DNA of 64,000 bases from Candidatus Eremiobacteria bacterium (GCA_963758295.1 CAVWUU010000001.1:448001-512000), one strand, 5' to 3'; positions 15,001 to 21,000 are shown, numbered from the stretch's first letter. A program made the numbers.

Positions 15001-18000
15001 GCCGTCATTGTGCCCGTTGCGAAGCAGCCCTGCTGCGAGCACGCGAGATAGGTGAACGTTTGCGACGACGCGGTGCCCGCGGCGACCGAGACAGGCGTGC
15101 GGACGGAGACGCCGAGCGGCACGTTCATCGAAAGGCCGACCTTGCCGTCGCCTTGGGCGGCAACGGTGAAGCCGATAACCAACCCGCCGTTTGTGAGGAC
15201 CTGATCGGTCCCGTGGCAGGCGAGGCTGCCTTTAACGGGATCGCACTCCAACTTCCATCCGCTGGTGCTTCCCTGCGTCATCGTGTTCGCAGGAGCGGCC
15301 GTGGGTGCCGGGGTCGCAGCCTGAACGACACCCGAAGACAATGCAAAAAGAGCAACTGCAGAAAGCAATTTCATACCGTTGTTTTCGGCAATGCGGCTTC
15401 GAAACTTCTGCAAAACGGCTTGTTTTTGAGTAAAGATGGCCGACGAGGGGGAAGCGCTGCGTACCAGCGTTCCAAGTCGCTATGCCACTGGCTTAACGCA
15501 TCGGGCTGAGATAAATGCATAATGTCCCGACGGATAGAAGCCGTAGGTGATGTCTTCTGAAGGGCCAGCGGCAAATTTAGAGGTTGTAGCGTGTACACCG
15601 TCGCGAGCCAAGGCGTAACCGAATCGTAGTATCAAGGGTGCCGAGAACTTGTGCAAACGCGGATTCGTCGTCATCTTTGACGCATGCCAGCCTCGGTATC
15701 GCTCTTTTAAAAAGACTGGCGCGACCGGGCAAAAGCTCTGGCCGACATCGAACGCGGGAATCTTCGCGTGTGGACGCGCGTAGAAGACGTCTTACCCTCG
15801 TTGCAACGCCTCGAAAAATAGCCCCCGTCGCATGCACTATGGAGCCCCGCTGATAAAGCCGGGCTCCTATTTGCATTTCGATGAATTTGCTGATCGTGCC
15901 AATGAAATGCCTGCGTCTTTAAATTTCGTCGAGGAATACGACGTTCGGTACGAAGCCATTGCTTCGACCCCTCATCTAACGCGTCGTCTTCCAGGTAACG
16001 GGTATCCGAAACTCCCATCTACTACTCGGCGCAAGAGCAGGCTCCATCGCGACAGCCGACTAGTAACACTGCCAGGTTTTGAAGCTGCAGCTGAGATTAA
16101 CACCCACCTGAGATCTCGATATAAAAAAGGTGACCGTGCCAGAACCCAAAGTTTTGGTCCTGCTCGCAAGGATACTTGAGCGGATGAACGTACGACAAAA
16201 CTTCGATATCCTTATTCCAAGACGCATGTTGGATGAACGTCTTTCCGTAAATCGTTTCCACTTGGGTGCGTGTTTGTCCGAGACGGATTCCATGCACCGT
16301 ACGCAGCGCCGAAAGGTCCTTATCCACTATAGGAATCGGCGGCGCTGCAATGTTGGATGCTAAAACGGTTGAGTGCCACGCGCAGCATCCTTCCGCATAA
16401 AAAACGGTGGAGTGCGCCGAATCGTAGATGGCATCGCCTCTTGGGGCGGCTTGTCCGTAGACGAATGGCGTTCCGTCCTCGGGCGAGCCTTGATTTAATT
16501 TCCACTCCATGCCGCGCGGTATTCGGTTTTCATAAACGAAGCCGTCCATGAATGGCACCTGTGCAGCTTTATGTTGATCGGAGTCTGCAAAGCCCTCTTT
16601 CAAAACCGGGAGCCAAGCCGCAATTTTCCAGTTATTGCAAACATCGTGGAAGTATTGCTTGCAATAGTCGGGCGGACGAAAGTCGGTTTCCGCGCCTTTC
16701 GGATAGTCTATGAACGTACGTTGCGCGCTAATTGCGGGAAGGTACAGCGCAACAGAAAGGGCGGTGAGAATCAGCGCGGCTCTTTTCATGATTCATCGTT
16801 CATTAAGGCTACCGCCCCGTTCCTTTCCAAGCTCGAGTCAAGCTAATGCGAAGCCGGCGCAACGCGGTTGATTCGACAATAAACTGCAAACGTTGCGAAA
16901 TTTTTTGTTCTCGTCTTGAAAGCGTTGTCAGACTTGCAGCCGGTGAAGCACTGAGCGGATGACGCCGTAAAGCGGCGTTCTAGAGCCCGATTCGGGTTAG
17001 GTCGGCAATGAATTCTTGCGTGCTGGGGCGATCCAGCCAATTCGCGAGTATTGCTTCAGCTTCGCGAGCCGAGCCGAGCACGCCGAGGTGATGCTCGACC
17101 GAAGCGCGTTGCGGAGCCGGATTCTGCAGCTCCGCTTCAAGGTCGTCAATTGATTGATGCGCTTCGTCGGTGGCCGGGATAGCGCCACGCAGCGCTTCCC
17201 CGGGAAAAGAAGATCGGACTTCGTCGTACTTATCCATGCGGCAACGCTACAAGGCGCGTTATCGCGCGCCCTGCTGCTCCGCAAGGGGACCCCACTTCTT
17301 AAGGACGCGCCTTCTCGCTGCAAACATCGTAGGCTCGACGCCAAGCGAATGCTAGAGATGAACATCCCGTTCGTGCGGGTACTGACAGACCGCGCTGGGG
17401 CTGCCGCGGTCATGACGAAACAGACGTGATCCGCGTGCCGCGGTATATTCTCGGCCGCACCCCTTGCGGACCGCGACACGTCAATTGCGCCGGGGATCCG
17501 GCCGTGCTTGAAACCGTAACGTCGAACGTGCCACGCGCAGTCGCGACTCTTACCTGCAAGCGCTCTTCGTCGACCTTCGTCACCGACGTCGCGGTGAGTG
17601 CGTCGCGTGCCGTGATCCCGAGCTGTTGATGTGCGTAGACGATTGCCGCTTGCGCCGCCGGCGTCAGCCCGATGCGCCCCCGCAAAATGTCCGGCAGAAC
17701 TTGGCCTGTCTCGGCGCGTTCCACGAACTGCGCTGCGATTTCCGCGCTCACGCGCCCGTACAGCTCTCCCGTCGGCAAAACCAAGACGTTCGCGGCGAAA
17801 CGGTCGCCGCCCAAATGCGTGGTTTCCCACACGCGACGGGGGCGTAGGTGTTGCAGTGCTTGCGCAACGGGCCGCCCGCGCAACGCGCAGCACGCATCGT
17901 GACGCCCGTGCGCGCAAACCAAGTATAACGGTTGCGTATCGATCGCAATGGGTGCGCGATGCGGCCCTGCGCCTTCCAGTTCGTCGGCGAGCTGCGCTAA

Positions 18001-21000
18001 ATCATCGAAGCGCCACCACGCAATCGCTTGCGCACCCGCCCGCGTGTCGGCAATCCCCACGTCGTAGCCTCCAGGGGGCGGCCCCACGTGATGTTTGCCG
18101 TGGCGGCGAATCGCTTGGAGACGCATGCCGGCGCGCGCAGCTGAGACGTCGATGCGATGCGCAACGTCAGGATCGGCACGGCTCTCGAGCAAGCCGCGTG
18201 GCCCCCATGCACCCGGTTGGTGCACCAGCAGTACGCGCGCTTGCGGCGGCGCGGTGCCAAGCATCGAATCGCCGCGTTCATCTGCTGCCGCCGCGCACCG
18301 AAATGCTGGAACACGCGTCATACCGGAACGACGATGCCCTCGCGCAGGAGCTGTGCGATCAGCGCCAAGCCCTCCAGCACATCGACGCCCGGCAGAGCCT
18401 CGGCCGAGACAACGGCGCCCGAAACGGCGAGCTGTGCGGCTTGCGCTTGCGCTTCGGTAACGCGAACTTCTTTGTCGGGCAATTCGATCACAAGCTCATC
18501 ATCGCCGGCACGGAATGTTGGACGAAGCCCGGGTCGCACACGTACTTTTGCGTCCGGTGCAAGGGACTCGGCCGCAGCGAATTGTTCGAGCGGCCGAAGT
18601 GGTGCAGGGCGCGTCGCCGCCGCCAGATTGCGTCGAAGCGCGCGAGCGATCGTTCCGCGATCGAAGCGATCGATCGCCGCGTGCAGCGCAGCGATCGTCG
18701 CTTTGAGATCGCCATCGATAGCGCGTTCATCGGTCAAATCGATGCCGGCGGGTAACGAGCGGCGCAGTTCGACATCGTCCGAGAGGACGCTGAGAACTTC
18801 ATCCGCGAGCATCCGGCGCGTCAACGCATGTATCCCGACGGTTAGGTGGCCCGAAATTTCGTTTAACGACGTCGCAGCATGAATGTATCCGCGCGGCAAA
18901 TAGAGCGCGTCGCCACATTCGAGAACGCAATCGATAAGCGGCGTTTCAGCGGCACGCGCGGCAACGGCGGGCTTGCGTGCCTGCCACGGTTGGTCGCGAA
19001 GCGGCGCCTGCAAGACGGGGTCATAGATGCGCCATCGTTTGCGGCCGGCGAATTGGAGCACGAAGACGTCGTGAACGTCATAGTGAGGGGCAAAGCCCGA
19101 GTTCTGCGGCGGCGTTAAATAGGCGTTTACTTGCACGGGGTGTCCGAGCTGCGCTGCAAGCGATTCCGCAAAGGATTGAATCGGCGCCCAAGTTCGATGC
19201 AAGCCCTGGAGCACGAGGGTTGCGCCTGAAGCAAATTCGGTGAGGATCTTGTCGTCGGCGACCTGATCGGCAATTTCCGCACCAGCGCCACCGCCGCGCG
19301 TGTACCGCGACGGCGGCAGAAGATCGCCGTCTCGAGTCATGCGGACGAACGGTGTGCGCAAACCGCGCCGCGACACCAACTCGTCGACTGCGTCCAGGGA
19401 AAGCAATTCGGAAAACCCGCCATTGGGAAGTTGCGCGGCGTTCAGAAGCAGCGGCGCAACGCCCCAATGTGATGTGGAAAATTCACCGAGGGTGAGCCCG
19501 GTGAGGCGGAAGAGCGGATCGCTCAGCTACCGCCACCGGCGCCTGCGTCGGCACCTCCGTCTGCGCCGCCGTCGGCATCCTCATCCGCGCCGCCGTCGGC
19601 TCCGCCGTCTTGCATGCCCGGATTACCCGAAGCGCCGCCATCGGCCGGCCCTTCAGCGCCGCCGTCCGCGCCGCCGTCATGCATGCCCGGCGTACCGGAA
19701 GCTCCGCCGTCGGCCGTGCCTTCGCGACCCGTTCTGTCGTCATCTTCAAACATCGTTCGGCTCCATCAAAGCGTGGGTAACCGCAAAAGCGCGGTCACAC
19801 GGCGTTTGCCCAGGCCCGCAAACGGTAAAACAGCCGCGGCCCGTTCGTTCGCTCGGGCACGATTACCACGCACCTCATTGACGCCTCTTCATGTAGCAAT
19901 GAAATCATTGCGCTCTCCTTATGGACTTACCGCGCGCTGACCCCGTCGTCATCGTGTTCGGGGTGTTTTTATGTTCAAGGTACTTCTTGGACCATGGCGA
20001 CAGACGGAGGAAAATCGGCGGGACGATTTCATTTGCCAAAATAGCCTGCGCTACTTACTTCGCTACCGAAAGCAACTCACGCATGCGCGCGCCCGTGGAT
20101 GCTGTGGTCGCCGTCAAATACGCGAAGGGCGACTGTAAGATTGAGGCGACGGGCAGATTCGAACTACCGCATAGGGCCTTTGCAGGGCCCCGCCTTACCG
20201 CTTGGCTACGTCGCCGCCGTAGACGTTATACGAGCCGCGTTGTATTGGATCATGCTTTTGCAATTGTTGCATGTGAGCTCTCTAGGGCGTTCGCTAGCGC
20301 CCACCCCTGGGGTACGACGATACCGTGGAACCAACGGCTCATACACGTGCAGCGCAGCTCAATATACCAAGTCGCCGCGCACTAGGATATCGCTCGCTCG
20401 CGATTTGCCATCCACAAACCGCAAACGCTGCTTAGATAGTGTAATGTTAACATTACCGTATTGGGACTCGGCTGAATGTGTTCGAGGTTAGGCAATGACC
20501 AATCCGCGCCTTTTTGAGAGGCGGCACTTGTGGCGATACGTTCTCATGCTCGCGTTTTTCTTTTTCACCCACGCTCGTGCAGGGCATCATGCCGCGAGTC
20601 GCTCATGCCGCCGAAGACGCTGCAACCATTCCGCGCTTCGAGCCGGCGTCGTGTCCGAAACTGCAAGGCGTAGAATGGCTCGTCCGCGCAGACTGCGGCT
20701 ATCTCATCGTGCCCGAGGATCGTAGCCGCCCGAACGGTCGTACCATCCGGCTCCTAGTCGCAAAACATCGTGCACAATCATCGAAAAAGCGGCCCGATCC
20801 GATCCTATACCTGGAAGGCGGCCCCGGGGACATTGCCCCGCTTGAGATCAACTCGATCATCGCCGCCGGACTTCATTCGCGACCGGGACATTTGGGTGGT
20901 GAGTCAGCGCGGCACCTGGCTTTCGCAGCCCGCGCTCACATGTGCGGAGACGAACAATTTCGCAAGAGCGCTCCTTGGCCTCCGTTTCTATTCTGCGGCA

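Follow-up and report, generated by a model that had tools for sequence, protein, structure and literature searches.

A translationally coupled gene trio encoding an Asp-Gly repeat peptide, a NO66-like JmjC oxygenase and a sucrase/ferredoxin-like protein: a candidate intracellular RiPP-like system

The JmjC_2 oxygenases NO66/RIOX1, MINA53/RIOX2 and YcfD/RoxA (PF08007) are built from an HxD...H core with a 2OG-binding Lys, a helical segment and a C-terminal winged helix. Hydroxylation of side chains at C3 is the chemistry of ROX-family enzymes. Fusions of JmjC domains with RREs have been recognised (PMC12710340) and are catalogued as HMM RREFam042 Cupin_JmjC_RRE; the accessible text of PMC6182338 describes the same winged helix in ribosomal oxygenases, the substrates of which are ribosomal proteins, and the domain is therefore not diagnostic of RiPPs. 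RiPP-tailoring Fe/2OG enzymes include MppG (Moorena mpp cluster), a leader-dependent peptide hydroxylase with a C-terminal RRE according to the accessible part of its description, and BipG (biphenomycin), a JmjC hydroxylase acting on the precursor; the residues that they tailor are Trp or Orn, and their clusters contain other class-defining enzymes. In the sma graspetide cluster, the Fe/2OG enzyme SmaO hydroxylates Asp within the DG motifs, rich in Gly, of a RiPP precursor (Asp-Gly is hydroxylated, Asn and Glu are not), and a second iron protein, the HD-domain protein SmaX, follows; the cluster also contains an ATP-grasp enzyme, and its leader is of the double-glycine type that serves export (PMC12186529). 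Apd1/Aim32 and cyanobacterial CctD (PF06999/IPR009737) have a thioredoxin-like ferredoxin fold with CX8C and HX3H motifs, the latter being the ligand motif of the bis-His [2Fe-2S] proteins Apd1/Aim32 (PMC8482512); in the accessible part of one preprint, CctD is encoded in uptake clusters of a β-hydroxy-Asp siderophore and was dispensable for uptake in the test described (10.64898/2026.07.30.741596). Sigma-B/SigF regulons (B. subtilis SigB, S. coelicolor SigB homologues, M. smegmatis SigF) are read from promoters with a GTTT-like -35 box and a GGGnA -10 box. Small hydrophilic proteins are commonly driven by such general-stress promoters.

The window analysed here, 64,000 nt of Candidatus Eremiobacteria bacterium DNA (GCA_963758295.1, CAVWUU010000001.1:448001-512000), holds a peptide gene, a JmjC gene and a Suc_Fer gene that form one coupled minus-strand unit (Table 1); all three ORFs were recovered where the first-pass annotation had placed them. 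The JmjC reading frame runs without a stop from 19526; a CTG at this point overlaps the peptide stop (overlap of that stop with the JmjC frame had also been noted before), and the first common start codon in the frame is a TTG at 19406. Since residues 3-40 are as conserved across 78 relatives as the C-terminal half (48%), translation most likely begins at about 19526, at the CTG within the peptide stop. We consider it moderately probable that the trio is an intracellular RiPP-like system that belongs to the general stress response and in which β-hydroxylated Asp-Gly repeats form a metal-binding polyanion and the Suc_Fer protein acts as Fe-S redox partner.

Table 1. Features of the module and its neighbour, numbered from the first letter of the window.
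Feature	Position	Strand	Remarks
Putative sigma-B/SigF-type promoter	19807..19831	-	GTTTT ... GGGCA, 16-nt spacer; 3' edge 53 nt 5' of peptide ATG; predicted from sequence
Shine-Dalgarno GGAG, peptide gene	19761..19764	-	7 nt before ATG; read from sequence
Repeat peptide, putative precursor	19523..19753	-	76 aa; Asp/Gly/Ala repeats, 8 DGGA units, short acidic leader
NO66/MINA-like JmjC Fe(II)/2-oxoglutarate oxygenase	18318..19526	-	402 aa; C-terminal ROXA-type winged-helix (RRE-like) domain; putative CTG start
Suc_Fer-like (Apd1/Aim32-family) protein	17410..18321	-	303 aa; PF06999; ATG overlaps JmjC TGA
tRNA-Cys(GCA), second copy in genome	20143..20215	-	neighbour only, outside module

Loci were fetched independently by the JmjC gene, and the best 80 of 367 confirmed loci were used. 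A full peptide ORF was present at 74 of these, the other six lying at contig ends, and the Suc_Fer gene at 72, with seven true local absences and one short contig; the loci are related, so that the counts overstate independence. The previously claimed linkage of the trio amid varying flanks was thereby reproduced. The JmjC subfamily was found in 80/301 sampled Actinomycetes genomes and in 16/401 genomes of the host's phylum, which agrees with an earlier description as actinobacterial with patchy occurrence in that phylum. Within the host's family the module occurs in 15 of 296 other genomes, a share similar to the 3 of 61 given before, and the peptide gene stands at 15 of 16 family loci. The 16 family rows form one clade of the tree (SH-aLRT 99) nested in Actinomycetota; the trio moved into the family as a unit. 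Unlike NO66, MINA53 and YcfD, the system is patchy and horizontally moved, and its JmjC enzyme comes with a repeat peptide dedicated to it and with a Suc_Fer gene. The trio had been called undescribed, and no description was found in the literature searched, which covered few subscription papers and not the table of gene neighbourhoods around bacterial NO66-like genes that supplements PMC2938197.

The Suc_Fer protein matched PF06999 (E 1.6e-19); it has a core C136-x8-C145...H169-x-G-G-D173 and further invariant residues (C9, C144, C282, H138, D142). It has in common with Apd1/Aim32 and CctD the CX8C motif (C136-x8-C145 is invariant), the first His of HX3H and the ferredoxin fold. It differs from them in that the second His ligand, position 173, is replaced in all 67 module-linked proteins, by Asp in 58, Cys in 6 and Glu in 3, with His in none, and in its coupling to a JmjC gene instead of transport genes. 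The HxGG[DH]R motif proposed in the first-pass annotation marks a conserved site but lumps two subfamilies: among 30 PF06999 loci, 18 had HxGGD beside JmjC, 11 had HxGGH without JmjC and one had HxGGD without JmjC, a split that may represent one ancient event. The predicted structure (pLDDT 95.5) matched 1f37 (Z 9.8, rmsd 2.6, 95 aligned) and 5abr (Z 9.2), and the core is modelled as a thioredoxin-like ferredoxin, an electron-transfer fold, with a predicted [2Fe-2S] cluster. The N- and C-terminal parts gave no clear fold match in a brief comparison; no PDB sequence match to the protein and no relative in viral contigs were found. Because the gene is missing locally at seven of the 80 loci and was not found anywhere in one of the genomes (G404), it is dispensable.

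In a two-step scheme, JmjC would make β-hydroxy-Asp and Suc_Fer would be a second catalyst that converts it further, for instance by dehydration or, through oxidative C-C cleavage, to aminomalonate; SmaX, an unrelated protein, acts in this way after SmaO on Asp-Gly motifs. Such a scheme would account for the tight coupling, the changed ligand set and the extra invariant residues, which go beyond those of a plain ferredoxin. It is nevertheless unlikely: the recognisable core is an electron-transfer fold and not an HD domain, the gene is locally absent at seven of the 80 loci, and stand-alone HxGGH paralogs have most of the same residues. On the preferred reading, Suc_Fer would be a dedicated [2Fe-2S] redox partner with Cys2-His-Asp-type ligands, its most likely task being to hold the iron of the oxygenase in the reduced state or to free iron from the product.

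The JmjC protein matched PF08007 (E 8e-28; 96.9 bits, cut-off 22). H148, D150, H216, K163 (the 2OG-binding Lys), N134, Y136 and H227 align to NO66 and are invariant in 83 aligned JmjC proteins, in keeping with the HxD-type metal motif reported earlier; NO66 (top, E 1.7e-21), MINA and YcfD are the closest solved structures, and NO66/MINA had been named as such before. Residues 318-402 resemble WHD_ROXA clusters (score 0.95), and the order JmjC, helical dimerisation segment, winged helix matches that of the ribosomal oxygenases in the accessible text of PMC6182338. A model folded without alignment (pLDDT 40) gave no confident structure of the winged-helix domain, and a complex prediction of JmjC, peptide and Fe (score 0.01, mark 0.32) was uninformative on binding either way. 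Among loci with leaderless peptides, the four rows shown (L027, L029, L068 and L149), which come from one clade, have a 6-7 residue deletion in the winged helix; at matched core identity, winged-helix identity was 0.32 for leaderless loci versus 0.39, an only modestly higher divergence.

The peptide consists largely of Gly, Asp and Ala (27, 14 and 13 of 76 residues; 8 DGG units). Sequence variation among the peptide genes sits at third codon positions, which shows that the ORF is coding. The residue before GGA is Asp in 1141 of 1152 repeat units and never Glu or Asn; Asp, Ala and Gly (118/118, 118/118 and 117/118) are the only residues present in every, or nearly every, core. A leader motif of two hydrophobic residues with four residues between them (Phi-x4-Phi) is enriched: 58 of the 118 unique peptides have it, against a mean of 10.8 and a maximum of 21 in shuffles and 3-14 for other spacings, or 79 if the initiator Met is counted (versus 22.6); even then it is missing from 39, and the peptide of this locus does not have it. 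The spacing is that of L(X)4L, described as an RRE-binding motif in the accessible part of a preprint (10.64898/2026.10.04.756588). Asp specificity, the D/A/G cores, the enriched leader motif and the SmaO precedent all favour the earlier reading of the trio as a RiPP-type system with hydroxylated Asp; the reaction itself is proposed, and the system is not a secreted natural-product cluster. MppG and BipG differ from the present system, in which the core is a polymer of Asp and Gly and no modifying enzyme other than JmjC is evident.

The same data bear on a ribosomal-oxygenase-like role, in which JmjC would act on some other cellular protein, ribosomal or not, the acidic peptide being a stress protein, decoy or regulator. 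The enzyme's nearest structures and the same domain order, winged helix included, would suit this role, as would the absence of export or processing genes and the frequency of small hydrophilic proteins under general-stress promoters. A generic acidic protein should, however, accept Glu, but in 99% of units it is Asp that stands before GGA; Ser421 of NO66, presumably with a role in His binding, aligns with the invariant Gly231; an Asp-rich peptide of its own is encoded upstream of each related JmjC enzyme; and patchy distribution with transfer as a trio suits a self-contained system. We regard this role as quite improbable. Hydroxylation of Gly at the α-carbon, with backbone cleavage to C-terminal amides, would cut the repeat protein into short units and dispense with the protease that is not encoded. 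Gly is as universal in the cores as Asp, but Ser, Ala, Arg and His are all accepted in the place that follows Asp while Asp itself is unvarying, and ROX-family enzymes are side-chain C3 hydroxylases (accessible text of PMC6182338), so that this chemistry is very unlikely.

A general-stress-type promoter, which had no place in the earlier reading, precedes the peptide gene with boxes and spacing as in the published regulons. Of 15 family loci, 14 keep the boxes and their spacing while the spacer sequence varies (in shuffles a mean of 0.2 and at most 1), and the site ends 47-68 nt 5' of the peptide ATG. The signal is weaker in actinobacteria: GGGTA occurs at 32 of 74 loci there versus 6.7, and at 15 of 17 later loci that are not duplicates, but among the 19 actinobacterial loci that diverge most it was not enriched (3 versus a shuffle mean of 1.3). 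Genome-wide there is no excess of the motif, with 156 sites against 178-213 in shuffles. A similar site precedes the genome's own sigB operon, whose SigB/F/G factor (TIGR02980, 286 bits, cut-off 234) is preceded by STAS and HATPase genes. SigB-type factors were present in four of five other family genomes, the exception being 65% complete; across Actinomycetes, SigB/F/G was counted by eye in 77/80 JmjC-positive versus 173/221 other genomes, which is weak evidence. Control of the module by sigma-B may be supposed from these motifs. The main texts of the SigB/SigF regulon papers searched did not mention cupin or JmjC genes.

Neighbours were surveyed up to 6 kb on each side of the 80 loci with a crude ORF caller, which recovered 43 of the 72 Suc_Fer genes. 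No exporter, protease or uptake gene recurred within this distance, consistent with the earlier statement that the module has no protease or exporter; the commonest neighbour families, mostly housekeeping genes, reached at most 13/80 loci, and one 301-aa ORF without Pfam match lay near 13/80. For an IdeR/DmdR consensus box, the best mismatches in 74 upstream regions followed the shuffled distribution. A secreted natural-product cluster is therefore the wrong description, and a siderophore-like RiPP, cut, exported, re-imported with Fe(III) and reduced by Suc_Fer, is the most improbable of the alternatives: cyanochelins, in the accessible part of their description, have β-hydroxy-Asp next to Gly as chelating unit and a Suc_Fer-family gene in their uptake cassette, but here there are no recurring transporters or proteases, no signal-peptide-like stretch in the peptides (longest hydrophobic run 6), no IdeR box above shuffles, and a stress-type promoter.

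On the preferred intracellular reading, the coupled operon would be read from the sigma-B/SigF-type promoter, and peptide output would exceed enzyme output, given a strong Shine-Dalgarno sequence and ATG against the non-canonical, stop-overlapping JmjC start. JmjC would bind the peptide, partly through the winged-helix/RRE-like domain and the Phi-x4-Phi leader, and with Fe(II), O2 and 2-oxoglutarate would form β-hydroxy-Asp in the repeated D-G-G-A units. The product would be a cytoplasmic poly-β-hydroxy-Asp polyanion; its most likely use is to buffer metal ions (Fe or Mn) when cells are stressed or stationary, although this weakest step is put forward tentatively, by analogy. A bolder version, which we hold to be doubtful as a whole, is a new intracellular RiPP class run by a general-stress sigma factor, in which (DGGA)n becomes a ribosomally made poly-β-hydroxy-aspartate (or poly-aminomalonate) metal chelator with a Cys2-His-Asp [2Fe-2S] helper, both in some relatives of the host and in roughly one in four Actinomycetes species. 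On this bolder version, the chelator would be a cytoplasmic, metallothionein-like counterpart of β-hydroxy-Asp siderophores, and the system would connect the origin of NO66/MINA ribosomal oxygenases with peptide modification that depends on an RRE. The probable product of this gene set, which is widespread in soil bacteria, is a peptide that has been chemically modified inside stressed cells and possibly binds metal. The trio offers a concrete candidate substrate for relatives of human NO66 that are among the most widespread uncharacterised ones in bacteria, and places bacterial 'sucrase/ferredoxin' proteins for the first time in a context that can be tested. Should the chemistry prove right, the trio is a RiPP-like system of minimal size, neither exported nor antibiotic, within the general stress response of soil bacteria.

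No NCBIfam model scored above cut-off for any of the three proteins, and PADLOC anti-phage defence models matched no family among five proteins. Exact look-up in a protein collection found 0/9 peptides; a profile search returned 289 relatives, and 2 of the 120 listed are named 'BatC protein' (NCBI/UniRef naming), a name under which no literature was found. Longer JmjC homologs (448-513 aa) are not fusions with the peptide: the extra stretches arise where the repeat DNA is read off-frame. The 85-aa and 230-aa ORFs downstream of the module had no match in any other fetched locus. The tRNA-Cys was rejected as integration site or part of the system: no duplicated tRNA end lies nearby, and at 15 other family loci it is absent within about 1.5 kb. 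This second tRNA-Cys, which the first-pass annotation had also placed beside the module, is identical to the genome's other copy at 66 of 73 nt.

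The repeat-peptide, JmjC (NO66/MINA-like oxygenase) and Suc_Fer (sucrase/ferredoxin-like) ORFs were arranged head to tail, with the Suc_Fer ATG overlapping the JmjC stop codon. PF08007 and PF06999 were assigned to JmjC and Suc_Fer, respectively, by Pfam; no NCBIfam or PADLOC model scored above cut-off. Close homologues carried the names Candidatus Eremiobacteraeota, Tumulicola and Cybelea, which we take to agree with the phylum label of the window through synonymy. The JmjC frame was open from 19526, where a CTG overlaps the peptide TGA; its first common start codon was TTG 19406. 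JmjC residues 3-40 showed 48% identity in 78 relatives (vs 50% and 40% for two C-terminal segments), and ATG or GTG occupied the conserved start position in two loci of the window's own bacterial family (L092, L088). At several junctions among the family loci L083, L085, L086 and L089-L093, this position had no ATG, GTG or TTG; CTG or ATC was found there, in a frame relative to the peptide stop that differed between loci.

Features of the module, its surroundings and related loci (plain coordinates count along the window; others along the named locus or contig)
Feature	Coordinates	Strand	Remarks
Repeat peptide	19523-19753	minus	76 residues, 8 DGGA units, GGAG ribosome-binding site
JmjC	18318-19526	minus	
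Suc_Fer	17410-18321	minus	
ORF, 85 aa	16980-17237	minus	downstream of module; no Pfam match or match in other fetched loci
ORF, 230 aa	16097-16789	minus	downstream of module; no Pfam or other-locus match; 52% GC stretch
IalB-family gene	14859-15413	opposite to large repeat ORFs	after large repeat ORFs
Large repeat ORFs	2-14849		
Split hydrolase-like gene	20514-22152		frames 20514-21089, 20770-21414, 21440-21877
ytxH-like, STAS, HATPase, SigB-type operon	G000:C1:236921-238938 (L111)		own SigB-type promoter
Hydrophobic ORF, 301 aa	L025:3959-4861	same as module	
Distant JmjC and Suc_Fer (G401, Amycolatopsis)	L220 ~4010-6368		
Second JmjC-peptide family	L097:1039-2631		
Short ORFs before distant JmjCs	L105:1231-1368; L106:1181-1348; L102:1085-1237; L101:1263-1430		

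With JmjC as the query, 367 relatives were confirmed; the analysis used the best 80. A full repeat peptide was encoded upstream of JmjC in 74/80 loci (the remaining six lay at contig ends), and Suc_Fer downstream in 72/80. The flanks were variable: the commonest neighbour families, mostly housekeeping genes, were present at no more than 13/80 loci (33 of the 45 top clusters scanned, crude ORF calling). Twenty lower-scoring loci were picked by hand; 15 carried both an Asp-rich peptide and Suc_Fer, L153 had a DGG peptide without a Suc_Fer match, and four were of other types. Upstream of the module, L025 and 12 further Jatrophihabitans-like loci had a hydrophobic ORF of 301 aa that matched no Pfam family; its presence probably reflects local synteny with menaquinone genes, but it could encode a transporter.

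By a narrow preference, the module is read as follows: general stress would cause the peptide to be made, its Asp-Gly units would be bound and β-hydroxylated by JmjC, the modified peptide would remain cytoplasmic, most likely as a metal buffer, and Suc_Fer would donate electrons. Gene layout, residues, folds and promoter motif were observed directly, and transcription, binding, chemistry and function are predicted. That Suc_Fer instead performs a second chemical step is rather unlikely. The structure of Suc_Fer was predicted with confidence (pLDDT 95.5), and residues 128-224 of the model have the fold of thioredoxin-like [2Fe-2S] ferredoxins (1f37: 95 residues aligned, Z 9.8, rmsd 2.6). Aim32 has the ligand pattern CX8C...HX3H, according to PMC8482512, whereas the final His was replaced in all 67 module-linked Suc_Fer proteins (Asp 58, Cys 6, Glu 3, His 0); these residues are possible metal ligands. 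Among the best 30 of 50 PF06999 matches from 71 Actinomycetes genomes, with JmjC sought within ~1.5 kb, 18 had HxGGD and an adjoining JmjC, 11 had HxGGH and no JmjC, and one had HxGGD and no JmjC, a split that may represent one old divergence. In L220, an HxGGD Suc_Fer gene follows a distant second JmjC; ahead of this JmjC lies an ORF of 43 aa that carries an LxxxxI motif and a tail of Asp, Asn and Gly and may encode a shorter type of precursor. CctD, a cyanobacterial Suc_Fer-family protein, is encoded in a β-hydroxy-Asp siderophore uptake cassette and was dispensable when tested, according to 10.64898/2026.07.30.741596.

The repeat peptide appears to behave like a substrate, and the proposal that JmjC acts on another protein is given somewhat less weight still than a second step by Suc_Fer. 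In 118 unique peptides (seven frameshifted, truncated or other-type sequences were excluded), the only near-universal core residues were D (118/118), A (118/118) and G (117/118). Asp preceded GGA in 1141 of 1152 units and neither Glu nor Asn did so in any; this is the preference of SmaO, a published Fe/2OG enzyme described in PMC12186529 as hydroxylating the Asp of DG motifs and refusing Asn and Glu. Variation in the peptide genes was concentrated at third codon positions. A hydrophobic-x4-hydrophobic motif was present within the first 18 residues of 58/118 peptides (shuffles 10.8; other spacings 3-14), or 79/118 when the initiator Met was counted; examples are LDDDDM, LNDDDI, LTDEDI and FEDDNL. 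It was retained where the core repeat becomes DADADQT or similar, and L(X)4L is a leader motif bound by RREs (leader-recognition folds of RiPP systems) according to 10.64898/2026.10.04.756588. The peptide of the window lacks the motif, which counts against the leader reading. Databases label some homologues 'BatC protein', a name behind which a literature search found nothing.

The metal and co-substrate residues of JmjC were invariant in 83 aligned rows and align with those of human NO66 (E 1.7e-21), whereas Ser421 of NO66 is replaced by an invariant Gly. Several Arg residues (R57, R62 and R111) were fully conserved. Oxidation of Gly with backbone cleavage, in place of Asp β-hydroxylation, is improbable. 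With a score of 0.95, the C-terminal segment of 85 residues is similar to winged helices of the ROXA type; among the rows shown, four leaderless rows of one clade had a winged-helix deletion, probably a single event. PMC12710340 describes fusions of RRE-like folds to PF08007, places bacterial homologues in RiPP-like contexts and lists 'Cupin_JmjC_RRE' as an HMM; its consulted sections do not name such a trio.

Upstream of the actinobacterial peptides, 32/74 loci had GGGTA (shuffle mean 6.7, maximum 16). Most of these sites lie 42-70 nt from the start, and GTT(T/A) often precedes them by ~16 nt; these patterns were picked post hoc for the 74 loci and then applied unchanged to later ones. GGGTA recurred in 15/17 later non-duplicate actinobacterial loci and in just 3/19 divergent ones. 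GTTT-N14-19-GGG[TAC]A was present in 14/15 family loci (shuffle mean 0.2, maximum 1), or 12/13 excluding the window and a duplicate, with diverged spacers. The SigB/SigF consensus sequences in PMC8346170 and PMC4694148 match this pattern. A SigB/F/G factor is encoded behind STAS and HATPase genes in the window's own genome (G000), and GTTTAC-N14-GGGAA lay upstream of the sigB-type operon there and in 2/4 other family genomes; the operon may represent a Bacillus/actinobacteria-style general stress system within this phylum. The 156 motif matches across G000 were no excess over shuffles, and 38 of them preceded an ORF with a ribosome-binding site. Fifteen picked from these 38 were scanned; six gave no family match or a spurious one, and the matches included YtxH-like, transglycosylase-associated, hemerythrin and SpoIIE genes, which are typical general-stress genes. 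A secreted siderophore as product is the least probable alternative: the regions ahead of the actinobacterial peptide genes contained no IdeR box above shuffle level, and the peptides no signal-peptide-like stretch.

The JmjC profile (E<=1e-60) had matches in 80/301 Actinomycetes genomes. Within the window's phylum, the close form was found in 16/401 genomes, all 16 in the window's own family, with Suc_Fer at 16/16 loci and the peptide at 15/16 (the other interrupted by a contig end). A 126-row JmjC tree was built by a quick method from sequences sampled as best hits and was rooted at its midpoint; it omits L084, which duplicates L001, as well as any row that contains stops or is shorter than 300 aa. 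The family proteins fell into a single clade (SH-aLRT 99) placed inside the actinobacterial rows, with Allobranchiibius and Marmoricola as sister. The simplest reading would be a single transfer of the module from Actinomycetota. Genomes flagged as unpublished (G231, one distant tree row; G424 and G436, two of the 30 Suc_Fer loci; some members of the genome tallies) do not affect the conclusions.

The trio was undescribed in the literature searched; the main text of PMC2938197, a survey of bacterial NO66-like neighbourhoods, mentions neither ferredoxin nor sucrase, and its supplement may bear on the point. The module would work like a RiPP-tailoring hydroxylase system; RiPP membership is unproven, because the modification is a predicted one and export and processing genes are lacking.

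A second JmjC-peptide family was observed in the window's own family (L097, L098 and L099 from G250, G369 and G319; L221; L222), with JmjC at ~35% identity and an upstream peptide whose leader reads YxDxDVxT and whose repeats are PDDxGRDD; Suc_Fer was absent from the 8 kb fetched at two loci. Distant JmjCs of the phylum lay behind other short ORFs with Cys/Ser/Asp-rich or Gln/Asn-rich tails (L101, L102, L105, L106), which suggests further undescribed JmjC-peptide systems; L106 had an additional small ORF that by eye resembles a stand-alone RRE. In the window, an α/β-hydrolase-like gene was split across three overlapping frames, likely a pseudogene or sequencing frameshifts, and two very large Gly/Ala/Ser-rich ORFs (1538 and 1868 aa) with QSIGGGGG repeats look like autotransporter-type surface proteins.
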